Positions 3,852-38,117 of a stretch of 45,892 nucleotides of DNA are shown piece by piece. Below the pieces are notes generated by a model that saw nothing but the letters and a program-made list of their open reading frames with translations, ran no database searches and was not told the DNA's origin. A program made the translations under genes and the position numbers. Every line of letters begins with the position of its first letter. The first letter of the stretch is position 1. This stretch comes from Nitrospinota bacterium (GTDB lineage: Bacteria; Nitrospinota; Nitrospinia; Nitrospinales; VA-1). The stretch is taken from the NCBI GenBank assembly GCA_038108555.1, contig JAYNIA010000016.1:1-45892 (forward strand), written 5' to 3'.

Positions 3852-3939
3852 ATAGGGTACGCAACCTTGTATAATAAAGGCCGAACGCGCATGTTTTTGC
3901 GTTCGGCAGGTAAGTCATTAAAAAAGAGTTAATTAGACT

Positions 3940-3968
3940 ATTATTTCGCAGCCGTCTGATGCTGTCAA
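3940..3968 (-). promoter_or_regulatory. Putative sigma70 promoter of the mobBA-moeA operon
   Basis: TTGACA-17nt-AATAAT on the minus strand. Confidence 0.5.
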
Positions 3969-4042
3969 CCCTTTTCCTTTGGGAGGGTTACAGGAGAAAG
4001 TAACGATAAAAACAATAATTGGCAGGAAGGGTAAATCGCTGG

Positions 4043-5038: not shown

Positions 5039-5053
5039 TTACCTTTCTATGGG

Positions 5054-13706: not shown

Positions 13707-13742
13707 AAAAAAGGGTAAGCCGGGTGGGTTTACCCTTTTTTT
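13707..13742 (+). terminator. Rho-independent terminator
   Basis: aaaaaagggtaagcc...gggtttaccc followed by a T run. Confidence 0.8.
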
Positions 13743-13774
13743 ATAGCCTTTTCCGTTCATTGCTCCATTGTATA

Positions 13775-15446: not shown

Positions 15447-15500
15447 TCCTTGGCTGACGTACAATCTCCGGGAATATTAATAAGTTGAAATACTGAACCG

Positions 15501-15899
15501 ATGCTTGAACCCTCAGAAAAACAGTTGAGACAATTTGGCCTGATGATGGCGGGGGTGTTATCCCTTTTTTGTGGTGTTTTCTTTTACAAAAACTGGATCA
15601 TCGCTGCAAGTGTTCTCGGGGTCTTGATTTTGTTTTTTGGTGGTATGGGGCTTGTCGTTCCCATGGGTCTTCTTCCCGTCCATAAAAAATGGATGGCCTT
15701 TGCCGAGGTGATCGGGAACTTCAATGCCAAAGTTATTTTGAGCCTTGCTTATTTTCTGGTATTTACTCCCATCCGCCTGGTGGCCTCGCTATTCCGGGAA
15801 GACCCTTTAAGAAGAAAGATTGAACCTCAAAAAGAAACTTACTGGCTCGATTGTGAACCTCGTGATCCGGACCCCAAACGTTATGAAAAACAATTTTAA
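15501..15899 (+). CDS. SxtJ-family membrane protein
   Basis: QLRQFG, WMAFAEVIG, YFLVFTPI, DPL, TYW and terminal QF. Confidence 0.8.
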   Translation: MLEPSEKQLRQFGLMMAGVLSLFCGVFFYKNWIIAASVLGVLILFFGGMGLVVPMGLLPVHKKWMAFAEVIGNFNAKVILSLAYFLVFTPIRLVASLFREDPLRRKIEPQKETYWLDCEPRDPDPKRYEKQF

Positions 15900-16503: not shown

Positions 16504-17004
16504 ATGAAAATGCACTTGATGCGGGTGTGGATGGCGGCATTTGTTATGATAGCGTTCTTCTCCCCAATTCAGGTTTTAGCCTCGGACCCCGAAAATGGTT
16601 TTGACAAACCCCAGAATGCCTCAGATATACCCAAGGAACCGGGTTGGAGGCATCCTTCTTACCGGGGATGGGAGTCTTTGAGCGTTCCCGGTTTGGTGGC
16701 GACCTACTATGATTTGGATTTAGATCGTCAACTGGATTATATGGTCATTCGAAAAGTGATTCGAAAAGCCTCTTCGGAGGAAACGACGATTGAGCAAGCT
16801 ATCGAAACCGCTAAATTTGATAATTTAAGCGTATTCTTTTCGCATCCGGTCGTATATTTTACAAACAGAAATCCACTTTTTTATTGCTTGGGTGTGGATT
16901 ACAGACGCAATTGCCGAGACATCTGGGTCGATATTGCGGAAGATGGTTTGAACGGCAATGAAGAACTTTATACATTATCATCGCCGAGCCTTGGGGTTCG
17001 TTAG
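16504..17004 (+). CDS. Exported hypothetical protein
   Basis: Signal peptide (QVLA), YDLDLDRQLDY motif, two Cys, DGLNGNE. Confidence 0.7.
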   Translation: MKMHLMRVWMAAFVMIAFFSPIQVLASDPENGFDKPQNASDIPKEPGWRHPSYRGWESLSVPGLVATYYDLDLDRQLDYMVIRKVIRKASSEETTIEQAIETAKFDNLSVFFSHPVVYFTNRNPLFYCLGVDYRRNCRDIWVDIAEDGLNGNEELYTLSSPSLGVR

Positions 17005-18550
17005 AAAGAAAAAGAGCCTTTTTTTCTTTTGTATTTTGATAGCTTGGGCCTTTGGACCGCTTCCTGTTTATTCCCATTCAGAACATGGTAATGACTCTGG
17101 AAATCCTGCCAAAAGCAAAAAGGAATTGTTGCGCCTGGGGTCCACGGTTTACAAACATATGTGTGTGTTTTGCCACGGACACGATGGAAATGGGGGAGGC
17201 AAGGCCATGGCCTACCTTTACCCGTGGCCCAGAGATTTCAGGAAAGGCGTTTTTAAGTATAGAACCACCCCCTTTGGATCACTACCAAGAGATGCGGATA
17301 TCTATCGGACGATAACCCGTGGAATTCCCGGTACCTCCATGCCAGCATGGAAGGGAGCGCTGTCGGAGGATGAAACCTGGGGCGTAATCGAGTATATTAA
17401 AACTTTTTCAAAACGTTTTACAAAAGATAAACCTAAAGAGGCCATAGTTGTTGGTGAAATCCCTGTTTCTGATGAGGATTCCATAAAAAGAGGGCATAGT
17501 ATTTACAAGGAAATGCGGTGCTCACGCTGTCATGGTAGCGATTTGAAAGGCGATGGGCCCATTGCCGATGAGCTTTATGATATTTGGGACCATCGAATTT
17601 TTATTTATGATTTGACCGACCCAAATGCCTTTAAATTTGGTTTTGATAAAAAAGATTTGTTCATGATCCTGACAACGGGGATTGATGGAACCCCGATGAA
17701 GTCATACAATCATCTAAACGATCAGGAACGATGGGACCTGGCTTCGTTCATCGAGTCAAAAATAAACAAGGAGTTGCATAAACCGGCAGAATATGAAACT
17801 GACCTGATAACTCATGTTGTTGATGAAGAGATTGATATGGACCCCGGCAATCCGATTTGGGATGGCATTGAGGTACAAAATATCCACACCATTCCACTCA
17901 ATGCCCGGCGAGATCCTATCGACCAGATTCAGTTTCAGTCGGTGATGAACGATGAGGGAATTGCCTTCAGGTTGCAATGGGAGGACCCTGTCCCGAACCG
18001 GACTTCCAGCCGGCATCAAGATTTTAAAGATGCGATAGGGATGCAGTTCGCCCTGGGTGATGTTTTATTACATAAACATGGCCATAATGAGCCCTTCTTT
18101 GGGATGGGAAACCGCAACAAGGTGGTGAATATCTGGCAGTGGCGGGCTGACTGGCAAACGGAGATAGAAACAAAGGAAGAGCTGGAATATGCCACTCAGG
18201 GGATGGACCTGGATACCATGATTTTTGGCGGCGAGGTCAACCCGGTGGATTCGTTGAATCCTTTCAGGGATGTCCCTGTGGAGGAGCTAAATGCTGAGGG
18301 ATTTGGTACACTAACCCCCCAGCCACAGACAAAACAGAATGTTCTTGGAAAAGGTGTTTGGAAAGATGGCAAATGGAGTGTAGTATTTTTCCGTACACTG
18401 GATACTATCAATAAATGGGATATTCGCTTTCAGCGGAAAATTCCCGTCCTTGTGGCATTTGCTGTTTGGGATGGGAAACATCAGGACCGAAACGGGCGAA
18501 AGGTCATTTCAATGTGGCAGCGCCTGAAGGTCCCTTCGCCTGCTGATTGA
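16958..18550 (+). CDS. Diheme cytochrome c fused to an ethylbenzene-dehydrogenase-gamma/NxrC-like heme-b (DOMON-like) domain
   Basis: CVFCH and CSRCH, each followed by GT(S/P)M; C-terminal LQWED, FKDAIGMQF, VNIWQWRAD, AEGFGTL and VAFAVWDG..RNGRK. Start uncertain. Confidence 0.88.
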   Translation: MKNFIHYHRRALGFVRKKKSLFFFCILIAWAFGPLPVYSHSEHGNDSGNPAKSKKELLRLGSTVYKHMCVFCHGHDGNGGGKAMAYLYPWPRDFRKGVFKYRTTPFGSLPRDADIYRTITRGIPGTSMPAWKGALSEDETWGVIEYIKTFSKRFTKDKPKEAIVVGEIPVSDEDSIKRGHSIYKEMRCSRCHGSDLKGDGPIADELYDIWDHRIFIYDLTDPNAFKFGFDKKDLFMILTTGIDGTPMKSYNHLNDQERWDLASFIESKINKELHKPAEYETDLITHVVDEEIDMDPGNPIWDGIEVQNIHTIPLNARRDPIDQIQFQSVMNDEGIAFRLQWEDPVPNRTSSRHQDFKDAIGMQFALGDVLLHKHGHNEPFFGMGNRNKVVNIWQWRADWQTEIETKEELEYATQGMDLDTMIFGGEVNPVDSLNPFRDVPVEELNAEGFGTLTPQPQTKQNVLGKGVWKDGKWSVVFFRTLDTINKWDIRFQRKIPVLVAFAVWDGKHQDRNGRKVISMWQRLKVPSPAD

Positions 18551-18615
18551 ATCTCTCAATAGAGAAATTAATTTTTTTCGGAAACGCGTTTTAAAATAAT
18601 TTGGAGATTGGTTTC

Positions 18616-20205
18616 ATGTCAGAAGAAAAGGAAATGGAGGAGACTGAATCGGAAGACTCGCTTACCGTGTCTGAAGATGATGAACTAGATCTGGATGAAA
18701 TGGATGAGGAGGAAGAGGAAGCTCCTGAAGAAGTCAAGGAGGTTGGCGCCTATCTTGTTATTGGACAGGGCGATTTCTCCATGACTCAATCCAACAGAGG
18801 TGCCGATGACCCGGGGGATAATACCCTAAGCGAGCCTCAGTATATCGAAAAGTTTGGGGATATGCTGTTTGTAGCCGATCGGGGTAACCATCGCGTAGTG
18901 ATATGGGAACAGTTTCCGGAAGAAAATGGTGAGCCTTGCTCCCTGGTTTTGGGACAGGAAGATTTTGCAGATTGTCTTGAAAATCGTGGAATGACCACAA
19001 CGCTGGATGAAATGACCTCGGGACTGGGTGATGAATCTCTGGATGGATTCACCATCAGTAAAGCAGAAGAGGATACACTCTCTCAGCCTGCTGGAATTCA
19101 AGTGATTGATGGAAAGCTTTATGTTGTAGATAGTGGTAACCATCGTATTCTCCGCTGGTCAGGCATTCCTTCAGAGGACGGAGAGGCACCCAGTCTGGTA
19201 TTGGGACAGGATAATCTGGATGACAACGAAGCGAACAGGCGTGGCTTTGTTGGGTCGGGTTCGTTGTTTTTCCCAATGGGAATCAATTCCAGTGACAACC
19301 AACACATTTTTGTTGCTGATAAGGACAATCATCGTGTGCTTTTATGGAATAAAATTCCATTCAGTGATGGTTGGAATGCCGATATATCCCTCGGCCAACG
19401 GGGAATGGACGAAAGATGGCCGAATCAGGGGGACTTTGACAACGTAGCATCAGACACACTCAGTTTCCCAACCGGTGTTTTCTACGATGCCGAAAGGGAA
19501 AAGGTATTTGTTGTAGATCAGGGTAACCACCGAGTTTTGATCTGGAACAAACTCCCGAGGGAAACTGGAGTGGCGGCAGATGTTGTGGTTGGACAAAAAG
19601 ATTTTCTAAGCAGAGAACCCAATTCAGGAAAAGGCGCTAAACGAGCCTGCCAGGAAGGAATGTATTTCCCCACCGATGTAGTGGTCGGTGAGATGGGAAT
19701 GTTTGTTTCTGATACCGGAAACAACCGCGTGTTGTATTGGAAAGAAATACCCACCGAAAATGGCCAGCTTCCGGATTGCGTGTTTGGCCAAACAAATTTC
19801 AATGAAAATAAAGCCAACCGGGGAGTGGAAGGTGAAGCCACAGCAAGTACGCTGGACGACCCCTTTGGGCTGCTTTTGATTGAAGAAGAGGAAGAAGAAG
19901 GTGGTCTTCGGGAAATCCCAATGCCAGACGATGACGATGATGAGGAGACTGCTCTAGCAAACACTGAAGGAGGGGAGGAAGAGGAACCTCAGCCGAACTT
20001 CAAACTGTTTATTGCAGACAGAGGAAATTCCCGAGTTGTTGTTTGGGATGAACTGCCTTATCCAAAAGAAGAAGAGAAGGAAGAGGAAGAATTTGAAGAG
20101 CTTCAGATTGATGATGAAAATACATTGATCGGTGACGACGATGACGATGATGATTACTTCGACGATGATGACGAAGTCCCACCGGGAGAGCTTCCATCCG
20201 CCTGA
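18616..20205 (+). CDS. NHL-repeat beta-propeller protein with very acidic termini and insertions
   Basis: Repeated LFVADRGNHRV / VVDSGNHRI / VADKDNHRV / VSDTGNNRV and VLGQxDF motifs; poly-D/E tracts; GGAG before ATG 18616. Confidence 0.88.
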   Translation: MSEEKEMEETESEDSLTVSEDDELDLDEMDEEEEEAPEEVKEVGAYLVIGQGDFSMTQSNRGADDPGDNTLSEPQYIEKFGDMLFVADRGNHRVVIWEQFPEENGEPCSLVLGQEDFADCLENRGMTTTLDEMTSGLGDESLDGFTISKAEEDTLSQPAGIQVIDGKLYVVDSGNHRILRWSGIPSEDGEAPSLVLGQDNLDDNEANRRGFVGSGSLFFPMGINSSDNQHIFVADKDNHRVLLWNKIPFSDGWNADISLGQRGMDERWPNQGDFDNVASDTLSFPTGVFYDAEREKVFVVDQGNHRVLIWNKLPRETGVAADVVVGQKDFLSREPNSGKGAKRACQEGMYFPTDVVVGEMGMFVSDTGNNRVLYWKEIPTENGQLPDCVFGQTNFNENKANRGVEGEATASTLDDPFGLLLIEEEEEEGGLREIPMPDDDDDEETALANTEGGEEEEPQPNFKLFIADRGNSRVVVWDELPYPKEEEKEEEEFEELQIDDENTLIGDDDDDDDYFDDDDEVPPGELPSA

Positions 20206-25186: not shown

Positions 25187-26983
25187 TTAGGGGGCCACAC
25201 TCGTGGAGGCCATATTCAAAATTTCTTCTTTTCCGTAATGGTCGAGGTAGAGAAGGAAATGTTCCCGAGAAAGGTAGTTCCAGATTTTACGGGAGGGAAA
25301 ATGCTGTTCTATTATGGAATCGAAACGTTCATAAACATCCATGACTTCTTCCCTTGGCATTCCCTTTTTGATTTCATAATCAAATACGATAGCCATGTCG
25401 CGATCCGGATCTTGAATGATCCGGTCAATTTTGAACTTTGCCGGGTTGTGATAAATTGCGGAGTCTTTTTCCAGGGCGAAAATCGATTGTCCCACCGAGT
25501 GTATGGTACCGCTTTGCATTTCAGAATTTTCAATCGTAAATTGAATCGTATCTTCCGCTTCGTCTCTTTCTTCTGTAGGAAATCCAAAAAATAAGTAGAG
25601 GTGGTTCCAAATTCCAGCTTCCGAGCTGTGTCGCAAAACGGCTCTTTCTGTTTCCTGGTCACAGCCTTTATCAATGACTGACAGAATACGGTCGTTGGCA
25701 CTTTCTAGTCCGAAAAACAGCATGAGAAATCCTGCACGATAGATATCGTCAAAAAGTTCTGCGGATTCCTTTTCGCTAGACTCGAATTTCAGCATTCCCA
25801 GAGAACGCATTTCCACCCCACGTTTTAATATTTCTTTCGACATGCGGTTAAACGCGTTTGGAGAAATGGCTTCGTCTGAAAAAGTGAAATACTTGGTCTT
25901 GTATTTTTTTGAAAGATGATCCAGTTCTTCGGCGACCCTCACTTCATTTTCTTTTCTGTAATGCGAGTCATAAATAAAACTGTGGGTGCAGAAAGTACAT
26001 TTCCCCCAATAGCATCCCCGGCTGGACATATAAGGAAGCACAGGATAGGGCATCAGATATTTTTCCAGGGGTAACTGGTCAAAAGTCGGGCAGACCAGCT
26101 CCTCATAAGGTAAAGCCTCGGTTTTGGGATTGCGGATGACCTGGTTGCCTTCCAGATGAATCAGGTTTGGGACTGTGTGTAGCGGTTTATTTGCTTTAAG
26201 ATGGCAGACCAGCTGGTCAAGCGGAAGTTCTCCTTCAGATACGATCAGACTGTGGAAAAATTCTTTAAATAATTCCTGTTTGTCATCCAGCAAGTCCGCG
26301 TGACGATTGAAAACACTACCACCCACGACAATGTGTAGATGGGGGAAACGGCGACGAAGCTGGCGCGCCAGGGTGAGACCGGGTATGACCTGTCCGATAT
26401 GTATGATAGAAAGTCCGACAATTCCGTATTCGTCCCAGGGTATTTTGGGAGTCAGGTAATTTTCGAACATATGTAGGAATGGGTTGCGCACGGTGTCTTC
26501 AGTTGCGCTCAATATTCCCGCCAGGTTTTCTTCCGGATTCCCCTGCATGAAAAATGAATCGAGATCCACACGACTGGGGTGATGTGCATAGGATATTAAT
26601 TGCATTGCAATTTTAAGGTTTGTGTAAGCTTTGCTGTATATGTCGAATTGAAAGAACCGGTTTTCGTCTTTCAGCACATTTTTTGCATCTTCTACCTCAC
26701 TAAGAACGGACTCCAGAAAGTCTGTATCTGTCAGGATATCGTTGTAAACGGGCCGCACCTCCTGATCTTCTGTGGCTCTTGTAGGGTCGGCAAGGCGTTT
26801 GCGGATGGTCTCTACACAGTATTCCAGGTACTCCCGCGACAAAAAAACATCGTAACATTCGATGTTTAGGTCATACTGGTCTACTGCATGGCCCTTCGAC
26901 TCCAAATGGGCTTTTAGAGTGGGTAGGGCCAAATAAGGTTGGCTGGGATACCATTGCGGCGGAAACAGGAGAGCGACTTTCAC
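25187..26983 (-). CDS. Cobalamin-binding-domain radical SAM protein
   Basis: LLFPPQWYPSQPYLALPTL, VGLSI, IVVGGS, SEGE, SRGCYWGKCTFC, FSDE, FGLES and FFGFPTE; GGAGG RBS before GTG. Confidence 0.9.
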   Translation of the reverse strand: MKVALLFPPQWYPSQPYLALPTLKAHLESKGHAVDQYDLNIECYDVFLSREYLEYCVETIRKRLADPTRATEDQEVRPVYNDILTDTDFLESVLSEVEDAKNVLKDENRFFQFDIYSKAYTNLKIAMQLISYAHHPSRVDLDSFFMQGNPEENLAGILSATEDTVRNPFLHMFENYLTPKIPWDEYGIVGLSIIHIGQVIPGLTLARQLRRRFPHLHIVVGGSVFNRHADLLDDKQELFKEFFHSLIVSEGELPLDQLVCHLKANKPLHTVPNLIHLEGNQVIRNPKTEALPYEELVCPTFDQLPLEKYLMPYPVLPYMSSRGCYWGKCTFCTHSFIYDSHYRKENEVRVAEELDHLSKKYKTKYFTFSDEAISPNAFNRMSKEILKRGVEMRSLGMLKFESSEKESAELFDDIYRAGFLMLFFGLESANDRILSVIDKGCDQETERAVLRHSSEAGIWNHLYLFFGFPTEERDEAEDTIQFTIENSEMQSGTIHSVGQSIFALEKDSAIYHNPAKFKIDRIIQDPDRDMAIVFDYEIKKGMPREEVMDVYERFDSIIEQHFPSRKIWNYLSREHFLLYLDHYGKEEILNMASTSVAP

Positions 26984-27313: not shown

Positions 27314-27343
27314 TTGACAGTGTTTAGGGAAAAGGATTATACT
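27314..27343 (+). promoter_or_regulatory. Putative sigma70 promoter
   Basis: TTGACA-18nt-TATACT. Confidence 0.65.
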
Positions 27344-27410: not shown

Positions 27411-28016
27411 GTGTTGAGCGACCAGGATACTGAAACAAAAGAAACAGCGGATTCTTCGGAAGCGCCGGAACAAAAAGAGGTAGATCACCTTTCCGATTTA
27501 AGTGAATTGGAGAAAATCAAGGCCGAGCTCCAAAAAGAAAAGGAAAAGGCAGCTCAGGAACTTGCCGAGGGTGAGGAGGAGGAAGAAGATTTAAGGGAGG
27601 TAGATTACCTTCAAAAACTAATCACCCTTTCAGTCAAGTTTGATCACCATATCGGTATGTACCTTATGCCCGCTTTTATTGATTGTGGACTGAAATACGA
27701 CCACCGTCTTGCTGAAAGTTATACCGTGCAGTTAACGACAATTCAGTCGTTTTTGCGTCTTCTAGAAAAAGTGGATGGCGTGACCCGTGAGGAAGTGACC
27801 AAGCAATGTATTTTAAATTTGAGAAACATTCTTCAATTGGTCCATAAAAACATGGTTAAACCACTTTTCCGGGAAGTGGGTTTGATGAAAAAGAAACCGA
27901 AATCGGAAAGTCTGGACAATTTCAAAAAGAACTGGAATGAGCGAATAGAGGAATTCCAGAAAACCTGTGACTTTGAGTATCAGATACTCGATGTAAAAGG
28001 GTTTTTGTTAAAGTAA
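27411..28016 (+). CDS. Hypothetical helical protein with acidic N-terminus
   Basis: 201-aa ORF with AAGGAG RBS; E-rich first 60 aa; no family recognised. Confidence 0.8.
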   Translation: MLSDQDTETKETADSSEAPEQKEVDHLSDLSELEKIKAELQKEKEKAAQELAEGEEEEEDLREVDYLQKLITLSVKFDHHIGMYLMPAFIDCGLKYDHRLAESYTVQLTTIQSFLRLLEKVDGVTREEVTKQCILNLRNILQLVHKNMVKPLFREVGLMKKKPKSESLDNFKKNWNERIEEFQKTCDFEYQILDVKGFLLK

Positions 28017-28183: not shown

Positions 28184-29179
28184 TTGGCTGAAGAAACTGT
28201 CAGCGAGGAAGGGGAAGATTCAAAAGCCCTTGAAGTTGTAGCTACGGAAGAGACTCTTCCTGAAGAACAACCCAAGGTTGACCACAGTAAACTGTATGTC
28301 TGGGTGGCCGACACCGGGAATGATCGAATACAAAAATTTGATGGTAATGGAAAACTGCTGATGCAGTTTGGAACCTCTGGAGGCACAAGGCCTCCCTATG
28401 TCCCGGGGGAGTTTAAAACGCCAAGTGGAGTTGCGGTTGACCTGGAAGGCTATATTTGGGTGGTGGATACCGGCTGTCATCGGATACAAAAGTTCGATCC
28501 GGAGGGAGACTTCTTTCTGGAGTTTGGAACCGAAGGCTGGGGGCAAGACAAATTTTATATGCCTGAGGAAATTGTGGCAGAGCCTATGGGCACTATTCTC
28601 GTTGCCGATACCTCCAATCATTGTGTGAAACGCTATGACGATGATGGCGAGTTTATCCTCAGTTTTGGTTATGCAGGGAACTTTGATGGTTTCATGAAAT
28701 TCCCCGTTGGAATTGCTTTGGACCGGGAAGGGAATATTTATGTTGCAGACCGGGATAATCAACGGATTCAGATTTTTAACGAAGACGGTCAATTCCTGTC
28801 CAAATTTGGGGAGTATGGTTTTGAGCCGGGGCGACTGAACTACCCTACGGGTATAACAGTGCGTAGAGATGGTACTTTGATTGTTGCTGAGAAAAGCCAA
28901 AACCGCCTGCAGCTTTTTGATCGAGAGGGGCATTCTCTCGGGATCATTGGTGATGCAGGCAAACGCGATGGTCAGTTCAACTGTCCCTCTTCGGTGGTGG
29001 AAGACCCCTACGGCTACGTGTTTGTGGTCGATACCATTAATCAGAGAATTCAGAAATTTGATCCAGACCTGAATTTTATGGCCAAGTGGGGAATCGTAGG
29101 TAAAGACCCCGGCCAATTTTATAACCCATCCGGTATTTGTCTGTCATGGGAGCCCGACTGGGCGCCTCAGGAAGAGTGA
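28184..29179 (+). CDS. NHL-repeat six-bladed beta-propeller protein (TRIM71/NHLRC-like repeats), acidic N-terminus
   Basis: Six repeats of G.F..P.GIA.D..G.IYVAD..N.RIQ.F. Confidence 0.93.
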   Translation: MAEETVSEEGEDSKALEVVATEETLPEEQPKVDHSKLYVWVADTGNDRIQKFDGNGKLLMQFGTSGGTRPPYVPGEFKTPSGVAVDLEGYIWVVDTGCHRIQKFDPEGDFFLEFGTEGWGQDKFYMPEEIVAEPMGTILVADTSNHCVKRYDDDGEFILSFGYAGNFDGFMKFPVGIALDREGNIYVADRDNQRIQIFNEDGQFLSKFGEYGFEPGRLNYPTGITVRRDGTLIVAEKSQNRLQLFDREGHSLGIIGDAGKRDGQFNCPSSVVEDPYGYVFVVDTINQRIQKFDPDLNFMAKWGIVGKDPGQFYNPSGICLSWEPDWAPQEE

Positions 29180-29182: not shown

Positions 29183-29809
29183 ATGAAAAGCCAACCTGTT
29201 TCTAAATTCCTTCAAGAAATGCGATTTCCAAACTGTTTTATTCTTTCATTCCTGTTAACCGTTTTTATCTCTGTTGGAAATGTGTGGGCTGAAGGTAGTA
29301 AGGATGAGATCTTCGGAGGCCAGATTTTGTCAATGACCGAAGAAAAGCCTCCTCTGACCCCCTCCAACGACCCCCGATTTAAAGATAATAATGATGGGAC
29401 GGTAACCGACTTGCAAGAAGGGTTGATGTGGAAGAAATTCGATTTTTATCAGGAAAAAAAAATATGGGCAAGTTGGGAGGAATCACAGAAACTTTTAGAA
29501 AAGTTTAATGAAGAAGCGTATGCAAGTTACTCGGACTGGCGGTTGCCTACACGCGAAGAGCTGAAAACCCTTTATGAGGAAGATAAAAAAGTTCCTTGGA
29601 AATATTACTGGACGGAAAATTTTATACATATTGATCCTATTTTTGGCTATTCGCATTGTTGTTTCTGGTCGAGTGAACTTTATAAAGACAAATATGCCTG
29701 GGGATTCAACTACATTGGCGGAAGAGCTTATCCCAGTATGAAAGGTGGAGGTCAGTATCACCTTTCTTTGTCAACGATTCGTCCCGTCAGGACGGTTAAA
29801 AAAAAGTAA
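29183..29809 (+). CDS. DUF1566/Lcl-domain protein with signal peptide
   Basis: RFKDNNDGTVTD..GLMW, YSDWRLPTREEL, FWSS and terminal IRPVR; hydrophobic signal ending VWA. Confidence 0.9.
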   Translation: MKSQPVSKFLQEMRFPNCFILSFLLTVFISVGNVWAEGSKDEIFGGQILSMTEEKPPLTPSNDPRFKDNNDGTVTDLQEGLMWKKFDFYQEKKIWASWEESQKLLEKFNEEAYASYSDWRLPTREELKTLYEEDKKVPWKYYWTENFIHIDPIFGYSHCCFWSSELYKDKYAWGFNYIGGRAYPSMKGGGQYHLSLSTIRPVRTVKKK

Positions 29810-29885
29810 ACTGAAAAAACGATTTCCCATCTTTGAATTTTGCAAATAAACTTTTCAACTTGTCTCTGCAATTGAGTCCAAGCCT

Positions 29886-30707
29886 ATGAGCGAAGAAGAA
29901 AAAGAAGAGACCTCTGAAAATGAATCCCCTGAAGAATCTTCGGAAGATTCTGCTGAAGATAGTTCTCCTCAAGCTGAGTTAGAAGAGGGTGAAGCGCCTG
30001 ATTCGGAAGAAGAACTGGAAGATGAGGATGAGGAGGAGATTGAGTTCGACCTCGAGGCGCAGGTCGAGGAATTTCGAAGGTTAATCGAGGAAGACCCGGA
30101 TAACTGCGTTAATTATTATAATTTAGGTGAAGCCCTTGCAGAGTTGGGGCAAGCAGGCGAGGCAAAGGAAGCTTTCGATCTGGCTCTGGAATTGGATGTG
30201 AATCAGGAGTTCAGTTCCATCATTCATTTGGGGATTGGTAATCTATATTTTCATCAGTTGATGTCGGGGATCCAATCGAATGTTGTTAAAAGCTCGGTGG
30301 GAATGCTCTCACAGCATAAGCAGCAAAACTCCATAGACTCTGTTACCGGGGATGATTATTCCATCCCCATCGGTGAGTTTGAAAAAGCCATTCAGCACCT
30401 TCCAACCCTCAATGCGGATGAAGATATTGTCGATTATGTCCGGAATAATGCACCCAAACAAATTTCGACCATTTACTACAAATGGGCTTCCGATTTATTT
30501 GACAAAGCGCGGCAACTGGAAAATTACGGGGATGAAATAAAAGATATCAAGCAGGGCCTTAAATATTTGAAAAAGACTATAGAGATTGACCCCAACCATG
30601 CTCAGGCGAACTTGATGGTTAAGTATGGCAAGAAGATGTTGATGGAGGGATTCAGTATTTACGATGAGTATGGTTTCGAAGCAAAAACAATCCCTGGAAC
30701 GGGGTAA
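29886..30707 (+). CDS. TPR-containing protein with a long acidic N-terminal tail
   Basis: About 55-aa D/E/S tract; YYNLGEALAELGQAGEAKEAFDLALELD; TIEIDPNHAQA. Confidence 0.82.
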   Translation: MSEEEKEETSENESPEESSEDSAEDSSPQAELEEGEAPDSEEELEDEDEEEIEFDLEAQVEEFRRLIEEDPDNCVNYYNLGEALAELGQAGEAKEAFDLALELDVNQEFSSIIHLGIGNLYFHQLMSGIQSNVVKSSVGMLSQHKQQNSIDSVTGDDYSIPIGEFEKAIQHLPTLNADEDIVDYVRNNAPKQISTIYYKWASDLFDKARQLENYGDEIKDIKQGLKYLKKTIEIDPNHAQANLMVKYGKKMLMEGFSIYDEYGFEAKTIPGTG

Positions 30708-30731
30708 TGCATTTCATAGGTGGAGTAAATA

Positions 30732-31127
30732 ATGCCAAATATAGATGATTTGATAAGGGATAGGTTGAGCAAAGATGGACAGGTGCTCAATTTAAAGGCT
30801 CAGTTTTTGAGAGAAGTCGGGGCCAAAGAATTAGCGAAGAGGGAAGAGTTGAAGAATGTTCGGGCCATGGACCTGTCGCAAAATGGGATTGGAGATGAAG
30901 GGGTTAAAGCAATAGCAGAATCCGATGTCTTTTCAAATTTAAGAAACTTGAATCTGGCATCCAACAATATCAGTGATGAGGGAGCCAGATGCCTGGCCAC
31001 ATCAAAAAAATTAAATAATCTTCGCAGCCTTCAGTTGGTCGTTAATGATATTTCAGAAGAAGGTGAAAAGATATTAAGGAATTCTACAGATTTGACCAGT
31101 CTGACGTCTCTAAAGTTCAGAGTTTAA
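30732..31127 (+). CDS. Small leucine-rich-repeat protein (RI-like LRR)
   Basis: MDLSQNGIGDEGVKAIA, LNLASNNISDEGARCLA and LQLVVNDISEEG; 28-aa period. Confidence 0.9.
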   Translation: MPNIDDLIRDRLSKDGQVLNLKAQFLREVGAKELAKREELKNVRAMDLSQNGIGDEGVKAIAESDVFSNLRNLNLASNNISDEGARCLATSKKLNNLRSLQLVVNDISEEGEKILRNSTDLTSLTSLKFRV

Positions 31128-31258
31128 AAGGGTTTTGGGTGGCTCAATTCGGGGTTCCACAGGCAGAAAAAGCATTAAAAAAGGCTTCCGGGGCAGGGGT
31201 TGGAAACTATTGAAAATACAGGGTTTTTGGGGGCTAAAATTATAGTTTTATTAAACGC

Positions 31259-31287
31259 TTGACTTCCCTTGGGGGTTTTGATATTTT
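31259..31287 (+). promoter_or_regulatory. Putative sigma70 promoter
   Basis: TTGACT-17nt-TATTTT. Confidence 0.5.
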
Positions 31288-31464
31288 CGGGCCACTCTAG
31301 TCAGACCAGTAGGTTTGCTGGGTAGGTTCCGTTCTTTATCAGGCAAGGCAAATAGTCGGAGCCCCACAACTTTAGATAAGATTCACCGATTTAGGTTGAT
31401 GGATTTATAAATTTATTAGGTTGTTTCGGGTTTACTTTAAATCAAGCTTCGAAAGGGGGAGCAA

Positions 31465-31959
31465 ATGAGAAAGACCGTTTTAACTTTGTTTGCAGTATTG
31501 TTTGTATTTTCTTCAGTAGCCAGCGCAAATGTTGGTACATTGAAAGCTGGTGCTTCAGCTGACTGTATTCGAGCTAGCTGGGTAATTGAAAACATCAGTG
31601 AAACCAAAGACACCACCGTTCATATTGATATCGGGAAAATGGCGTATTCTTACACCAAAAACTTTGACCGAACTTTGGAGCCGGGTGGATTCTTGGCAAA
31701 TTCTTTGGAACTTAAAACCACTTTCACCAACAAAGGTCCTGCTGACATCCTGCTGAACTGTCAAGCTCACCGTGTTGAAAACGCTAACCGTGTTGAGTGG
31801 AAAAAAGATGCAGGTTCTCACAAAACTTATCAGAATAACTACCATCTGGACCATGTAACTCCTGGCACATACATTGAGCCTGGAATGGGTCAACCAGAAG
31901 GTACAGAGCGTGGTCTTTTCAGTCAGGTTAACGGACAGCAACGCGAAGGCGAACGCTAA
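31465..31959 (+). CDS. Exported hypothetical protein
   Basis: Signal peptide (VASA), two Cys, GGGGGAG RBS, own terminator. Confidence 0.82.
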   Translation: MRKTVLTLFAVLFVFSSVASANVGTLKAGASADCIRASWVIENISETKDTTVHIDIGKMAYSYTKNFDRTLEPGGFLANSLELKTTFTNKGPADILLNCQAHRVENANRVEWKKDAGSHKTYQNNYHLDHVTPGTYIEPGMGQPEGTERGLFSQVNGQQREGER

Positions 31960-31977
31960 GACCAGTTTGAATTAAGT

Positions 31978-32008
31978 GCCGGGGGGCTTTGCCCCCCGGC
32001 TTTTTTTT
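31978..32008 (+). terminator. Rho-independent terminator
   Basis: gccgggggg-ctttg-ccccccggc followed by T9. Confidence 0.92.
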
Positions 32009-32087
32009 TGGAATTTTTTTGGACATTGAAGCCCAAGGCTAAAAAATTATAAAATACAGAACATAATAAATTTTTGATGAGGCAAAA

Positions 32088-32582
32088 ATGAGTGAAAACA
32101 GGTTTGTGGAAAATGGTGACGGTACCGTAACGGATAACCTTACCCAGTTGATGTGGATGCAAAATGACTCGTATTTGGATCTGTTGCGTTTTGTCACTCA
32201 TAGCGGGGCTCTGAAGTACATGGAAAAGAAAAATAAAGAAGTCTTTGCCGGGCATACGGACTGGCGTTTGCCAAACAAACGAGAGGCGCACTCCCTATTT
32301 GATCAGGATAAAGAAATCAAGGATAAATACGACATGGTGATACACATTGATCCGGTGTTCACAAGCGGATGTGGTTATGATACATGGACCAGCAATGTAA
32401 GAGGGAAGATTACCGCCTATTGCTATTCCTTTGGCAGTGGCTCAGGAGGCCACAAGGAATCAGAAGACACTTTAAACTCCAGTGTGCGGCTGGTGCGGGG
32501 AGAATTCGACAATTCAAAAGCCAAGATTACATTTGTTCCGGAAGTCAGGGATAAAATAACTCAGGGAGGGGGCTGGAGGTAA
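32088..32582 (+). CDS. DUF1566/Lcl-domain protein
   Basis: RFVENGDGTVTD..LMW, FAGHTDWRLP, TWTS and VRLVR. Confidence 0.92.
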   Translation: MSENRFVENGDGTVTDNLTQLMWMQNDSYLDLLRFVTHSGALKYMEKKNKEVFAGHTDWRLPNKREAHSLFDQDKEIKDKYDMVIHIDPVFTSGCGYDTWTSNVRGKITAYCYSFGSGSGGHKESEDTLNSSVRLVRGEFDNSKAKITFVPEVRDKITQGGGWR

Positions 32583-32875
32583 CCTCCGTTCTATGGAATT
32601 AAACCTGGAATCAAATACCCACAAACGTTGCAAAATCAGAGGTTTTAAGTCAGCGCAAAACCTTATTTGAGTTGAAAATAAAGGCCTTGAATGGTATTTT
32701 GTACTATTAAAAACAATAATGATTCAAAGAGAGTCAACACTCTATCTCCTTGTTAAAGTTTACTGGGTCAGTGCTTATCCCGAATCCCTCCTGCTGGAGT
32801 GAGAAGACAATAAGCAAAGTCTCTTTGAATAGACGGGATGGAAAGGGTGTTTTTTTTATTGCTGTTATTTGAGGT

Positions 32876-33319
32876 GTGAAAGTGGCGCAGCCAAACTGGA
32901 AAAAAAACGACAATGGTACCATTGAAGATCATGATACCGATTTGATGTGGGTTGTAAGGGATTCCAGACAGGAATTGGGCAAATGGCTAAATTGGGACGA
33001 AAGTATGGCTTATGTAAAGGCTTGTAACGAGCAAAATTATCTGGGATACAATGATTGGCGTTTGCCGAGTAAAAGCGAGGTGCGTTCCATTTTAAAAAAC
33101 AAGGAGCCCTATCGCGAGATGTTCCTGAATCTACCCAAAAAGCCCGCCCGGCGTGTTTCGAATTACCAGGCAGGTGGAGAAACGAGTTTGTGGACTTCTG
33201 AAACCCGATATGACTCATATGCGTGGAAGTGTTACTTTCCCGATTTAAAAGAAGTATGTGTAGATCAATCGGTTTCAACCACAGGAACTTCGGTTCGAAT
33301 GGTCCGCGATCTGGATTGA
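32876..33319 (+). CDS. DUF1566/Lcl-domain protein
   Basis: NDNGTIED..LMW, LGYNDWRLPS, LWTS and VRMVR. Confidence 0.9.
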   Translation: MKVAQPNWKKNDNGTIEDHDTDLMWVVRDSRQELGKWLNWDESMAYVKACNEQNYLGYNDWRLPSKSEVRSILKNKEPYREMFLNLPKKPARRVSNYQAGGETSLWTSETRYDSYAWKCYFPDLKEVCVDQSVSTTGTSVRMVRDLD

Positions 33320-33344
33320 ATATTTTAAATAGACGAGGTTAATA

Positions 33345-33950
33345 ATGTCTGACGAACAGGAAGAGTTTGAAGAGGTTTCTGATCCCGATCTTTTGGATGA
33401 TGACACCGAAACCGAATGGGTGGGTGAAGAAGAATGGGGCGATGAGGAGGAAGAAGATGTCGCTCTTGTAGAGGAAGAAGTTCCAAACTTCATCGACAAT
33501 GGGGATGGGACCATCAGTGATACGCGTACCAACCTGATGTGGAAAAAAGATGATTCTTTCAAGGAATATGGTTATGGAATCAACTGGTTTGAAGCTCAGG
33601 ATTATTGCGAAATGTTAAACGAAAAACAATTCGCCGGTTATGATGACTGGAGATTGCCCAGTGGTGAAGAGGCCAAAAGCGTTTTCTCCTTCACTCAGTC
33701 CAATACAGATAAAGATGGTGCTGAAACTCATATATCAGATTTGTTTGAGCCCGGAGGTGGGCACAATACATGGACTTATGAAGAAAAGCCGGATTATGAA
33801 CAATATGCGCAGAAGTTCAGTTTTGTAACGGGCAATGATATGTGGGAGCACAAAGATAACGAGTATTCCCATTGCAGGGTGACCCGTGATGTGGTTCAGG
33901 ATGAGTGGGAACCTGAATGGCGAAAAGATACCAAAGCGTTTGAACGATAA
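33345..33950 (+). CDS. DUF1566/Lcl-domain protein with acidic N-terminal tail
   Basis: About 45-aa D/E tract; FIDNGDGTISD..LMW, FAGYDDWRLPS and CRVTR. Confidence 0.92.
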   Translation: MSDEQEEFEEVSDPDLLDDDTETEWVGEEEWGDEEEEDVALVEEEVPNFIDNGDGTISDTRTNLMWKKDDSFKEYGYGINWFEAQDYCEMLNEKQFAGYDDWRLPSGEEAKSVFSFTQSNTDKDGAETHISDLFEPGGGHNTWTYEEKPDYEQYAQKFSFVTGNDMWEHKDNEYSHCRVTRDVVQDEWEPEWRKDTKAFER

Positions 33951-33993
33951 TTTTTAATTGTCTGAAGTTTAGAAAAGACAGAATTGGAGTTTT

Positions 33994-34212
33994 GTGAGCC
34001 ACTACATGATTTTTGGAAAAGACGATTGCCCTCATACCCAAAAGGCAGTTTCGGATTTCAAGGAAAAACACCGTTCTTTTATTTATATTAATGTGGACAA
34101 GGATCCACATGGATTAAAAAAGTTGTTGGAATATTCCAATGATCAATATGTTGTTCCGGTAATTGTCAATGTCGATGAAGACAGTGTTGAAATAGGTTAT
34201 ACCGGGGAATAG
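33994..34212 (+). CDS. Glutaredoxin-like protein (Cys homolog of the UXX-star selenoprotein family)
   Basis: IFGKDDCPHT, YINV..DP, VPVIV and IGY. Confidence 0.8.
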   Translation: MSHYMIFGKDDCPHTQKAVSDFKEKHRSFIYINVDKDPHGLKKLLEYSNDQYVVPVIVNVDEDSVEIGYTGE

Positions 34213-34253
34213 AACTTAGATGCCACTGGGTAACCCGGTGAAGGACTAAAATT

Positions 34254-34754
34254 ATGGAAGAAAATTTACCGCAAAAAGCAGATCAACAACTGGCGGAACA
34301 AAAAGACGACAAACCCAAAAGGTTTGTCGAAAAAGGCCGGGATGTTGTGTTCGATAATAAAACCCGTCTTTACTGGTTAAAGAAAGACTCCTGGCAGGAT
34401 AAAGGAAAATTTTATAACTGGCACGAAGCCACTGAATTTGCCGCAAGAAAGAATATGAGAAAAATCGGCGGCTTTGATGATTGGCGGCTTCCCAATGTTG
34501 ATGAAGCAACTTCACTCTATGATGAAAATTGTGAGATCCCCGGGAAGGGTGGCACCCGCCTTCACATTGACCCGATTTTTCCTGAAGGTGCGTTCAAAAC
34601 CGGATGGATTGCAGGTGATACCTCTACAAGGAGACCCCGGTTCGATTATAGCGAGGGGAAGGTGGTAAGTGTTGAGGAGTACAGCTTTGGTTCGGTTCGG
34701 ATTTGCCGCAAAGATGTGGTTGTGAAGCACCAGTCTGCTCCTCGAAGAAGGTAA
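34254..34754 (+). CDS. DUF1566/Lcl-domain protein
   Basis: VFDNKTRLYW, GGFDDWRLP, HIDPIF and VRICR. Confidence 0.9.
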   Translation: MEENLPQKADQQLAEQKDDKPKRFVEKGRDVVFDNKTRLYWLKKDSWQDKGKFYNWHEATEFAARKNMRKIGGFDDWRLPNVDEATSLYDENCEIPGKGGTRLHIDPIFPEGAFKTGWIAGDTSTRRPRFDYSEGKVVSVEEYSFGSVRICRKDVVVKHQSAPRRR

Positions 34755-34759
34755 AACCG

Positions 34760-35641
34760 ATGACAGAATCCACAAAACTAAAATACATTGATAATGGCGA
34801 TGAAACCGTGTCAGATACCAGGCACGGTATCATGTGGATGAAAAACGACACCTGGCTGGAATTGGGCCGGTTGATCACCTGGCACGAAAGCCTGGAGCTT
34901 GCCAAAAAAAAGAACGAGGAAAAATTTGCGGGCTATAGCAACTGGCGGATTCCCTCTGCATCGGAAGCTAAATATCTTTTTGATTCTGGATCCAGCAACA
35001 CTGATGTGGAAGGTTGTGAAATCCACATTGACCCTATTTTCCCTTCAGGTTGCGGTTTTTCAACCTGGACGAGTCAGACCCGGGGCGCAAAGGCCGCTAT
35101 GTCTTACGACTTCAGGTCGGATTATGAATACTGGCTGGCAAAGGAGAATGACGGGTTCCCCAGTGCGGTTAGATTAGTAAGGAGTGAAAAGGAGGAAGAG
35201 GAAGACCCGGATTTAGTTCGAATCGAAAAACAAAAGGATGGAACGATCATAGATAACAAAACCGGCCTTCAATGGAAAGCCGATGATTCTTATATGGATC
35301 TGGATAAATGGGTGACTTGGGAAGAGGCAAAAACCTATGTAGTCGAACTAAATCGCAGAAGATTTGCAGGTTTTGAAGACTGGAGACTGCCTACTCGGAA
35401 AGAAGCTCAATCCATTTATGACGCAGCGAACCCTGTGACAGATAATTATGGGGATACAATTTTTCTGATTAAAGGATTTCCTGCAGGAGCAGGGCAAACA
35501 TCGTGGACAAAAACCCTGCACAAAACAGAAAGGGGCATGGCAATTCGATTTCATTTTTATAATGGCGATTATAAATGGCATCAAATGGGGTTAAGAAGTC
35601 ATGGGGTTCGAGCGGTCCGTACGCTTAAAAAGGATGCCTGA
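34760..35641 (+). CDS. Tandem two-domain DUF1566/Lcl protein
   Basis: Two copies (DNGDETVSD...WRIP...VRLVR and DGTIID...WRLP...VRAVR) joined by an EKEEEEDPD linker; ATG 34760 preferred over ORF-track 34703. Confidence 0.92.
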   Translation: MTESTKLKYIDNGDETVSDTRHGIMWMKNDTWLELGRLITWHESLELAKKKNEEKFAGYSNWRIPSASEAKYLFDSGSSNTDVEGCEIHIDPIFPSGCGFSTWTSQTRGAKAAMSYDFRSDYEYWLAKENDGFPSAVRLVRSEKEEEEDPDLVRIEKQKDGTIIDNKTGLQWKADDSYMDLDKWVTWEEAKTYVVELNRRRFAGFEDWRLPTRKEAQSIYDAANPVTDNYGDTIFLIKGFPAGAGQTSWTKTLHKTERGMAIRFHFYNGDYKWHQMGLRSHGVRAVRTLKKDA

Positions 35642-35649
35642 ATAATTTT

Positions 35650-36105
35650 ATGAGTGAAGACAACAAACCCCAGACGCGTTTCGTGGAAGGGGATAGCGAT
35701 ACGATAATCGATTGTGCCAAGCGACTGGTTTGGTTAAAGCAGGATACCTGGCAAATCACGGGTAAGTGGATGGGCCAGTTGCAGGTCAAGGAATTTGCCG
35801 AAACTTTAAATAGAAAACGGTTTGCAGGGTTTTCAAACTGGAGACTGCCTACGGCAAACGAGGCGAAAAGTCTTTTCAACAAGAACTGGAAGAACTCGGA
35901 TAATTCCGGCAAAGAGATGTATTTGTCAGATATTTTCGATTCCGGGAGTTGTTTTTTATGTTGGACCAGTGATGTCAGGCACAAAGTGCAAGGAGTTCGC
36001 TTTAGTTATCGAAAAGGGGTAACGATGTATGATGATATTTATCGTACATCAAGAGGATCTTCGCGACTGGTTCGGGATATTGAGGATAATGAGGATTTGA
36101 TCTAA
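35650..36105 (+). CDS. DUF1566/Lcl-domain protein
   Basis: TIID..RLVW, FAGFSNWRLPT, CWTS and SRLVR. Confidence 0.9.
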   Translation: MSEDNKPQTRFVEGDSDTIIDCAKRLVWLKQDTWQITGKWMGQLQVKEFAETLNRKRFAGFSNWRLPTANEAKSLFNKNWKNSDNSGKEMYLSDIFDSGSCFLCWTSDVRHKVQGVRFSYRKGVTMYDDIYRTSRGSSRLVRDIEDNEDLI

Positions 36106-36123
36106 AAAGGATTGTATTGGGAA

Positions 36124-36609
36124 ATGGAAAAAAGATTTATCGACAATGGCGATGGAACGGTCACCGACCTGGAAACAAAATTAATGTGGAAACAGACGGA
36201 CTCTTTTCAGGATACAAGCCAATGGTCGAATTGGTTCAAGGCTAATGATTATGTTCGCGACCTGGGAATTAAAAAGTTTGCAGGATATACGGATTGGAGG
36301 ATGCCAACTTTGGATGAAGCGGAAAGCCTCCACGATGAAAATCATAGTATCAAGGATACGGATAGAATGGATATTTTCATCAGTGATGCTTTTTCTCCAG
36401 GAGGGGGATTTACGACATGGACATCGAATGAGATGCCACATGCCACCGCCGCAATATTCTATTATAGATATGGCCATGCCAATTCAAATCATAAAGAAGA
36501 TATCACAAAGGATGCTGTGCGGGCGGTTCGGGATGTAGAGAAGAAGGATGTGGAACGCGGAGTGTTTAAAAAGTATCCCGGTTTTTCCGATTCCCCGCTT
36601 CCTCGCTAA
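36124..36609 (+). CDS. DUF1566/Lcl-domain protein
   Basis: RFIDNGDGTVTD..LMW, FAGYTDWRMPT, TWTS and VRAVR; ATG at 36124. Confidence 0.92.
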   Translation: MEKRFIDNGDGTVTDLETKLMWKQTDSFQDTSQWSNWFKANDYVRDLGIKKFAGYTDWRMPTLDEAESLHDENHSIKDTDRMDIFISDAFSPGGGFTTWTSNEMPHATAAIFYYRYGHANSNHKEDITKDAVRAVRDVEKKDVERGVFKKYPGFSDSPLPR

Positions 36610-36653: not shown

Positions 36654-37496
36654 ATTGTCATCGAAAGCTACAGAGAAATAAATAAGCAGGAAAGTGAAAA
36701 TTCGGTACTGACTTACCGATTCGAGGAAGAGGACTATAAAAATAACTATGTCCTGGAGGACTATTACCACACCAGTCCCTTTTTCGACTACAATTATGTG
36801 GTCTTATACCTGCGGGATATGGACAATCCGGGGAATTCGTTTGCCTTCCAGGTTAACTTTAATAAAACATTCAATACGATTCCAGATCATCCGAAATTGA
36901 CGGACGTTCAGACTCAGATTGCAAAAGGTTTTGCAAAAAATGCAGCGGATGAATTGATCCTGCTTTTTAAACAACGGGCTATTGAAGCAAAAGCGTATGG
37001 TGAAAAAAATCCAGCGACGTATCTGGAATTTGAACCCGGTCGTTATTTTAATTTCATTGAATTAATTCCGCGAAATAATGAAATGTTGGACTTTAAACAT
37101 GGGTCCGATCAATATTTTGCCGAAGATTCCTATGACATTGACCCTCGAAATGACAATAGATGCTTGAAATTGTCCTTCTTTAAATTCCAATTGGACAATT
37201 CCGACCAGGCACCTATTTTTTCTACCACTTATTATTTCGATGAAAAATTGAGAGAGCAGGAGGATGCAAAGCTCACTCCAAAAAATAACGAAATGCTGAT
37301 TGCGTTGAACCAGTTTATACCGGATCTAAACGATCGGCTGAAAAAGAGATATAAAATTGCAAAAAAAATTGGAAACGATCTTCTGGAAAAACAGGAACCT
37401 GTAGAAGTAAAACATGAAAAGATAAAACCAAACGACCCCTGTCCATGCGGGTCGGGTAAGAAATATAAAAAGTGTTGTGCAATGATGGTGAATTGA
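36654..37496 (+). CDS. SEC-C metal-binding motif protein (start uncertain, 36654-36798)
   Basis: C-terminal [17 protein letters not shown]; frame open upstream to the TGA at 36645. Confidence 0.82.
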
Positions 37497-37544: not shown

Positions 37545-38117
37545 ATGGCAAAAGAGAGAAAAGTAAAAAAAGTTCAAGCCCGGCATATTCTTGTAGGCTC
37601 TAAGGAGCTTGCAGAAGAATTAAAAGTGAAAATAGATGAAGGGGCAGAATTTACCAAACTGGCTGAAGAACATAGTGAGTGCCCGTCCAAAAAACGGGGT
37701 GGAGATTTGGGTTGGTTTGGTAAAGGGGCTATGGTGCGTCCTTTTGAGGTGGCCGCCTTTACCGCTCAGGAGGGAGAGGTTGTTGGTCCTGTCCATACGG
37801 AGTTTGGTTGGCATTTGATCTATGTTTATGAAATCCAGGAAGATGTCGATGCGGATGCAGGACCTCCCACCGGAGACGAGGATGCGGATGAGGGTACCTT
37901 GCGTCTGGTAGCAGAAAATTATGCGCATGAATTTATGATGCTGGGTTACACCAGTAAAAAAGTGTTGAGTCTTTTTACCAGCCCTCATTTCAAATCAGCA
38001 AACACGGTTTACAATATCCTTGGAGAAGAAGTCATTAACGAAATCATTGCCCAGGTTTTTGGACAGAAGGTTGAAAAGTCTGAAGGCGAGGGGTCGGGAG
38101 AGGAAACCGCGAAATAG
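37545..38117 (+). CDS. Parvulin (PpiC-type) PPIase fused to an additional C-terminal domain
   Basis: ARHILV, HSECPS, GGDLGWF, MVRPFE and TEFGWHLI, then an acidic linker and a ~60-aa helical domain. Confidence 0.92.
   Translation: MAKERKVKKVQARHILVGSKELAEELKVKIDEGAEFTKLAEEHSECPSKKRGGDLGWFGKGAMVRPFEVAAFTAQEGEVVGPVHTEFGWHLIYVYEIQEDVDADAGPPTGDEDADEGTLRLVAENYAHEFMMLGYTSKKVLSLFTSPHFKSANTVYNILGEEVINEIIAQVFGQKVEKSEGEGSGEETAK

Follow-up and report, generated by a model that had tools for sequence, protein, structure and literature searches.

The C-terminal domain of Lcl from Legionella pneumophila (8q4e; PMC11162425) belongs to the Pfam family PF07603 (Lcl_C, also called DUF1566) and has a C-type-lectin-like (CLec) fold. 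Lcl is a single secreted, collagen-stalked, trimeric adhesin that binds glycosaminoglycans (PMC11162425). Other DUF1566 (CLec2) domains, such as that of LdtA, are targets of diversity-generating retroelements (DGRs) (PMC5758913). In cyanobacteria, many CLec paralogs are dispersed over one genome and some have caspase-like partners; they are recent duplicates, often kinase-fused and tied to active DGRs, and they were proposed to tune regulatory interactions and were linked to signalling (PMC7517822). Here we describe a panel of Lcl_C paralogs in Nitrospinales; among known nitrite oxidisers, these bacteria are the most abundant in the marine water column (PMC10839748, available in part). The sequence under study, called the window below, is a whole stretch of 45,892 nucleotides (nt) of contig JAYNIA010000016.1 from a Nitrospinota genome (working label G000; 91.85% complete, 3117 open reading frames (ORFs)). 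Eight genes of the panel lie in the window at positions 29183-36609. The panel is real and conserved, and it puts a known domain to a use not described before. No account of it was found in open text, in the main texts of PMC10839748 and PMC3578206 or in the supplement of PMC13768755.

A preliminary description of the window, made from its letters alone, had proposed an array of eight co-oriented genes with nine domains. The Pfam scan bore out the eight plus-strand genes and the nine PF07603 domains, which score 52-83 bits against a gathering cut-off of 34.9 (E-values from 1e-13 to 3.5e-43). We named the paralogs along the cluster A, B, C, D, E, F-G (a tandem), H and I. The row is not contiguous, as it is broken up by genes of a TPR protein (29886), an LRR protein (30732), a secreted protein (31465) and a glutaredoxin-like protein (33994). 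The array is real, but it is not the unit. A Pfam search found 25 Lcl_C domains in the genome; 16 of them are surrounded by housekeeping genes away from the cluster. Rather than the 7.4 kb array, the unit comprises about 23 fixed paralogs spread over the genome, together with co-distributed genes for LRR proteins, a protein named U and a parvulin fusion.

The composition of the panel is stable. There are 21-28 Lcl_C copies in 51/51 near-complete Nitrospinales genomes, whatever the genome size (1.6-5.3 Mb), and 0-17 in 15 genomes of other orders. One clear ortholog of 22 of the 25 domains is present in each of G063, G019, G021 and G029, which represent four families and include one genome of 1.7 Mb; one-to-one orthology across relatives, suggested earlier as a check, is thus confirmed. 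The presence or absence of a leader is preserved within each ortholog group in these four genomes. A further leaderless ortholog group occurs in four relatives (L345, L275, L324, L285) and is absent from this assembly, probably because of a gap. Together with the 22 orthologous domains it gives a core panel of about 23 domains, 18 leaderless and 5 exported, of which fourteen are dispersed singly over the genome. Outside the core are C34 and C35, which are variable, and C22, a generic domain present only in this genome. Paralog D is a single-copy gene in 71/77 genomes of the order (those with completeness of 80% or more) and in 0/15 others. In quick trees (141-142 columns, SH-aLRT support only), each of the nine cluster domains forms its own one-to-one ortholog clade across families (SH-aLRT 96-100), which agrees with the idea of an old panel diversified by paralogy. 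Deeper nodes are weakly resolved, and the cluster members are not a group apart from the dispersed paralogs. The named homologs of the cluster proteins come from Nitrospina, Nitrospinaceae and Nitrospinales.

We call the segment after the conserved tryptophan the tip. It had been described as strongly different between paralogs, and the mean identity between paralogs is indeed 14% in the tip against 35% in the core. The dN/dS check limits this variation to paralogs: within orthologs the tip is as conserved as the core or more, with dN/dS 0.007-0.107 in the tip and 0.06-0.16 in the core (pairs with pS 0.05-0.5; 7-99 pairs per domain). A C-terminal segment hypervariable among close relatives, which is a trait of active DGR targets, was not seen at these values. 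Such strong purifying selection within orthologs points to fixed specificity, not diversification. Nine columns differ between groups but are invariant inside each, and seven of them fall in the tip, which varies in character between basic (G, H) and acidic-aromatic (D); the F, G, H and C2 tips carry 5-8 invariant Lys/Arg. Since the tip is homologous to the variable region of DUF1566 DGR targets (PMC5758913, available in part), it is probably a binding site.

Shared motifs had been listed for the cluster proteins. Their strict forms are patchy among the nine domains (GDGTVxD in 2, LMW in 5, FAGxxDWRLP in 3, WTS in 5, VRxVR in 5, [ND]DS[WFY] in 3 and IHIDP[IV]F in 3), but the relaxed forms WR[LIM]P, D[STF][WFYR] and a final RxxR are each present in 9/9. 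The AlphaFold2 model of F-G (pLDDT 76, pTM 0.71) has a C-type-lectin fold. Its best fold match is 8q4e (Z 8.8, rmsd 4.4, 110 residues), followed at Z 6-7 by Bd2740, TvpA, PorK, CarF, PvdO and Mtd, and Foldseek returned only weak C-type lectin rows. Lcl 8q4e is the top sequence match too (E 2.4e-5). The cluster proteins belong to PF07603 and have the C-type-lectin-like fold. In the model, pLDDT is low exactly at the conserved tips, which would be compatible with folding on a partner. A search of longer proteins for fusions found F-G orthologs and generic multi-domain proteins only, with no informative fusion, and matches in a representative library were dominated by giant multi-copy surface proteins.

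The claim that only the gene at 29183 (paralog A) encodes a signal peptide was upheld by a Kyte-Doolittle hydrophobicity screen: a leader is present in 19/19 orthologs of A and in 1/365 orthologs of the other seven genes. A corrected start cannot give B, C, F, H or I a signal peptide, because their starts lie within a few residues of the domain. The leaderless paralogs are presumably cytoplasmic. We found the genes conserved in relatives, no leader gained through correction of starts, and no function assigned before in the texts searched.

The panel differs from each of the described systems. In place of the single stalked adhesin it has about 23 stand-alone paralogs, which bear a D[ST][WYF] signature and have a longer loop insertion; 18 of them are leaderless. 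An Lcl-type export signal with a stalk or anchor was sought in the eight cluster genes; seven are leaderless, and no collagen or other stalk domain was found. The segment divergent between paralogs occupies the position of the variable region of DUF1566 DGR targets, but it is under purifying selection, and this genome has no reverse transcriptase (RT), Avd, template repeat or hairpin. The cluster proteins are not Lcl-type adhesins and not active DGR targets. The cyanobacterial sets appear to be the nearest analogy, with many dispersed paralogs and, as in a sister lineage described below, caspase-like partners of some; in contrast to those sets, the panel consists of stand-alone, ancient one-to-one orthologs free of DGRs.

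The absence of DGR machinery, noted in the preliminary description, was confirmed for this 91.85% complete genome. A search for RVT_1 gave 0 matches (controls were positive), a search for Avd gave 0, and no template repeat was found among 43 non-self nucleotide matches of 24 genes. The DGR hairpin pattern does not occur in the genome, and none of the cluster genes has a GC-rich 3' end. Avd exceeds the cut-off in 3/77 genomes of the order, always adjoining FGE-type targets. Three Nitrospinales DGR cassettes, L251 (G026), L252 (G057) and L253 (G068), have template/variable repeat pairs and FGE-type targets unrelated to the panel; two more cassettes (L247, L248) were seen outside the order.

Four genomes of family f5, from another order of the same class, hold members of the subfamily of the panel. 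A subfamily profile, built from 17 leaderless domains only, gives 101-134 bits for the sister-family genes (116 for the gene linked to relics, see below), 103-141 bits for the exported paralogs of this genome (59 for C40) and mostly 80 or less for generic DUF1566 domains. Single subfamily members also occur in a few other phyla. Of the 19 sister entries listed, 15 bear a leader; the other 4 are truncated or split. The sister-family members group with C34 and C35 (SH-aLRT 98).

A subfamily gene in one of the sister genomes, G034, has a GC-rich 3' end (0.62 vs 0.43). It is followed by a hairpin element almost identical to the one that precedes an intact avd-RT cassette in G036, then by an N-terminal Avd fragment (E 0.003 against DGR Avd and 0.074 against NF033474) and by C-terminal RT fragments, which match best to RTs from intact phage DGRs that target DUF1566 (E 4e-9). 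DGR targets are known to carry a hairpin after the variable region (PMC3240598, PMC4372165; both available in part). The decayed cassettes (L148:2400-3734 and L154:2056-3206, on G034:C243 and C117; also the 3' end of L151) lie behind exported-type Lcl_C genes with caspase-like (Peptidase_C14) upstream partners. The relics, similar on both, come from two contigs of one metagenome-assembled genome (G034, 81% complete). No template repeat was found in 12 sister-lineage loci, and neither 80 genome loci nor 76 viral loci showed an intact DGR acting on the subfamily. Judging by the GC-rich 3' end, the hairpin and the avd and RT remnants behind the G034 gene, the subfamily has been a DGR target. This targeting may be older than the radiation of Nitrospinales. 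The DGR link to the panel probably exists as history, in the sister lineage.

The cluster itself is flanked by the genes of U and an NHL protein upstream and of SEC-C and parvulin proteins downstream. Its features are as follows.

27314..27343, + strand: sigma70-like promoter match (11/12) upstream of the block; a consensus match only, and the total site count equals chance.
27411..28016, + strand: U, acidic N-terminus, predicted four-helix bundle, single copy; no family match, nearly order-specific.
28184..29179, + strand: leaderless NHL-repeat beta-propeller (PF01436) with acidic N-terminus; a hydrophobic leader in 0/19 orthologs.
29147..29161, + strand: WEP[DE]W motif in the C-terminal tail of the NHL protein (residues 322-326), 19/19 orthologs.
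29183..29809, + strand: Lcl_C paralog A (PF07603), signal peptide, exported; leader also in orthologs.
29886..30707, + strand: TPR protein (Pfam scan), whose N-terminus is the most acidic of the proteome.
30732..31127, + strand: LRR_6 (RNI-like) protein (Pfam scan), 1 of 18 in the genome.
31465..31959, + strand: SP, a secreted protein, probably its own transcription unit; leader in 19/19 orthologs.
31978-32000: terminator-like hairpin after the SP gene.
32088..32582, + strand: Lcl_C paralog B (PF07603), leaderless; in family f3 retained at another place.
32876..33319, + strand: Lcl_C paralog C (PF07603), leaderless; most conserved C-terminal segment, dN/dS 0.007.
33345..33950, + strand: Lcl_C paralog D (PF07603), acidic N-terminal tail and WEPEW C-terminal tail at 33906-33920.
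33994..34212, + strand: CPxT glutaredoxin-like protein (PF00462) of the Uxx-star family (NF041114, 74.9 bits, cut-off 72).
34254..34754, + strand: Lcl_C paralog E (PF07603), leaderless.
34760..35641, + strand: tandem Lcl_C paralogs F and G (PF07603; AlphaFold2 model), leaderless.
35650..36105, + strand: Lcl_C paralog H (PF07603), leaderless, basic C-terminal segment.
36112..36609, + strand: Lcl_C paralog I (PF07603), leaderless.
36708..37496, + strand: protein with an N-terminal region of no known family and a C-terminal SEC-C motif; start CTG at 36708, inferred from orthologs.
37545..38117, + strand: leaderless parvulin prolyl isomerase (PF00639) fused to an order-specific helical domain.

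For the F-G gene, the start ATG at 34760, which equals the ortholog starts, was preferred over TTG at 34703. E, F-G, H and I are separated by 5-10 nt, and their order can be swapped. Scans of the locus for repeats and promoters gave only paralogy and chance-level promoter counts.

An order of 16 genes is identical in 16/20 loci compared. Three loci, all of family f3, lack B and have H and F-G swapped, and one locus is partial. All f3 genomes tested (4/4) carry B at another place; no B was found in G017. In that genome (L009; C1:875367 and 1404133; 86% complete) the cluster is seemingly split by about 530 kb, and neither C nor D was found, which may reflect an assembly gap. The genes of U and of the parvulin lie 9.5-13.9 kb apart in 52/53 genomes that have both on one contig (72 genomes have both). 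Family f3 retains the block though both flanks differ. The cluster order is thus conserved in relatives, as the preliminary description had asked, but its support for the array is weak, for dispersed paralogs hold unrelated neighbours too. Since 12/13 dispersed paralogs retain an unrelated neighbour even in f3, slow rearrangement accounts for much of the cluster order. With such high background synteny, gene order is weak evidence for one pathway.

Several companions have the same range as the panel. LRR_6 repeats are present in 51/51 genomes of the order and 0/7 others. The stand-alone RNI-like LRR family is order-restricted and numbers 18 in the genome, 16 leaderless and 2 with signal peptides, a pattern like that of Lcl_C (examples in G000 are C1:124354-126501, C6:67243-70906 and C18:17914-19064). 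The retention of about 23 Lcl_C and about 18 LRR genes even in genomes of 1.6-1.7 Mb points to an undescribed core process. U occurs in 74/77 genomes of the order, with 1 weak match in 15 others, and the C-terminal domain of the parvulin fusion in 74/77 and 0/15, respectively. The model of U (pLDDT 70) matches BDLP and mitofusin bundles best (Z 12). Kinship of U with BDLP, mitofusin or Avd was considered and rejected: the fold matches are common helical bundles and unspecific, Atlas matches are at 0.79, and there is no sequence match in the PDB. A link of the parvulin C-terminal domain to maturation of nitrite oxidoreductase (NXR), suggested by a likeness to small nar/nxr-operon proteins, was unsupported; the matches are close relatives or fragments only, and the Atlas matches (0.86-0.87) are leads only. 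In a range test with TIGR03479, genes resembling those of NXR and nitrate reductase (NAR) were also found in 6/15 genomes outside the order, so the test does not discriminate and the range of the panel does not point to NXR in particular.

Among the 3117 ORFs there are two occurrences of the motif WEP[DE]W (0.04 expected), in the tails of the NHL protein and of D. It is present in 19/19 NHL orthologs, and D has [WYH]EPxW in 57/57 orthologs, with W first in 47. None of 200 shuffles gave a shared two-tryptophan pattern. A second shared motif, EYGFE, joins an NHL loop and the TPR tail; it may be chance because of its position in a standard NHL loop. SP has two invariant cysteines and matches no family and no PDB entry. 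Orthologs of the SEC-C protein (36708-37496) open with a CxNPxCDC-like motif, which is degenerate here and seemingly repeated internally; the SEC-C tail is absent in family f3 and some other relatives.

Transcript data were taken from the available part of a metatranscriptome of Ca. Nitromaricola pontica (PMC13768755, Table S10), in which we traced the cluster from serA onwards by gene order and length. Every gene of the cluster is transcribed, at ordinary levels. The eight Lcl_C genes average 135-539, a four-fold spread, and rank from about 335 to 2,544 of about 2,890 genes in this one shallow data set, where many single-sample values are zero. For comparison, nxrA has 3,746 and nxrB 6,963. 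The inferred ortholog of SP reaches 1,531 (rank 29 of about 2,890). An extra gene of 1,020 nt, NITPON_00613, lies there between the inferred TPR and paralog A genes.

We tentatively propose, at somewhat less than even chances, that the panel is a set of fixed-specificity intracellular adaptors with LRR, TPR and NHL scaffolds and a WEPxW docking motif. Each leaderless paralog would bind its own protein or peptide partner in the cell via its conserved C-terminal tip; the ligands would be proteins, not glycans. The NHL, TPR and LRR proteins would be scaffolds of the same network, the NHL protein and D might dock on a common partner through WEPxW, and the parvulin and the glutaredoxin are possible modulators. 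As to history, an exported DUF1566 subfamily may have radiated on the Nitrospinales stem, after which most copies would have lost the leader and each variant would have been frozen. A broader version of this history is speculative and rather doubtful: in an ancestor, a hypermutating retroelement would have made a library of surface binders; the founder from which the marine nitrite oxidisers arose would have dropped the retroelement, fixed about 23 of the variants, brought 18 of these into the cell and combined them with TPR, NHL and parvulin proteins and a novel LRR family into an essential, eukaryote-like protein-interaction network that defines the order. If the DGR origin is true, a hypervariable receptor library was converted to fixed housekeeping specificity. 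Several facts weigh against the adaptor network. The family spans more than one compartment, as five core members are exported, and leaderless proteins can be exported in complex with a partner, as NxrB-type subunits are. Dispersed paralogs also retain unrelated neighbours, B left the cluster in f3 without loss, and the dispersed paralogs have no common neighbour theme. WEPxW was picked out by eye and its statistics were made afterwards. No partner or ligand of the panel was found. The conserved tips, the WEPxW tail and the cultured Nitrospina strains open a direct route to partner discovery.

The paralogs could also be subunits of one hetero-oligomeric ring, cage or filament with a dedicated subunit at every position, as in paralogous rings like CCT or the proteasome. 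Such assemblies typically show as fixed one-to-one paralogs without losses; moreover, E, F-G, H and I lie 5-10 nt apart and tolerate reordering, F and G are fused (model pTM 0.71), the CLec-fold PorK is among the fold matches, and the Lcl domain trimerises (PMC11162425, available in part). However, fourteen core members are scattered singly, five are exported, and the transcripts are ordinary and four-fold apart in the shallow data (135-539 against 3,746-6,963 for nxrA/nxrB), and we regard such an assembly as unlikely. It is likewise improbable that the paralogs do separate, unrelated jobs and that the cluster is what remains of old tandem duplications held by slow genome rearrangement. This would suit the high background synteny, the absence of a clade of cluster members, the free movement of B, and the terminator-like hairpin and long spacers that divide the block, but not the same restricted range of the non-homologous U, parvulin domain and LRR genes, the conserved tail common to the NHL protein and D, or the U-parvulin distance of 9.5-13.9 kb in 52/53 genomes.

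Each domain could alternatively be a sensor or carrier of a small anionic metabolite, nucleotide or glycan, as Lcl has a basic surface that binds sulfated glycosaminoglycans (PMC11162425, available in part), the F, G, H and C2 tips have their 5-8 invariant Lys/Arg, and some dispersed copies adjoin metabolic enzymes. We consider this quite improbable: no member is fused to an output domain, other tips are acidic or aromatic, and the neighbours are protein-interaction and folding modules, not enzymes with a common ligand. Export of the leaderless proteins with a signal-bearing partner (such as A or SP) into the periplasm, possibly around the nitrite-oxidation electron chain, seems very unlikely. 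The complete close relatives outside the order all look exported (among those listed), the exported paralogs C69 and C7 retain NxrC-like and cytochrome c neighbours in four families, and SP is secreted and highly transcribed; yet the neighbouring parvulin and glutaredoxin are leaderless too, invariant cysteine pairs are absent from most leaderless groups, and NXR/NAR-like genes outside the order make the range not NXR-specific. Even less credible is a role of the array in defence or toxin immunity, with recognition of foreign molecules. Both the CLec and the LRR fold serve as recognition modules, and caspase-like domains are fused to members in the sister lineage, but the copy number is fixed, the tips are under strong purifying selection, and no toxin, effector or RT gene was found nearby in the Pfam and RVT_1 scans (PADLOC was not scanned).

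Some observations concern other genes of the panel and of the window. The exported paralogs C69 (L023:3901-6915) and C7 (L022:1163-4313) remain next to NxrC-like heme b and cytochrome c genes in each of the four families examined. Two related secreted proteins (L032:2161-2637 and 3396-3851), which match no Pfam or NCBIfam family, are encoded upstream of paralog C29. Three N-termini that are among the most acidic in the proteome are encoded in the window. Another NHL protein, whose N-terminus is very acidic (18601-20205), comes after a fusion of diheme cytochrome c and EB_dh (NxrC-like; 16958-18550). Genes moeA and mobAB lie next to a multicopper oxidase gene (1501-5038); a phosphonate-type ABC binding protein and ATPase are followed by an SxtJ-family gene (13724-15899); and a B12-binding radical SAM gene (25187-26983) is divergent from the cluster.

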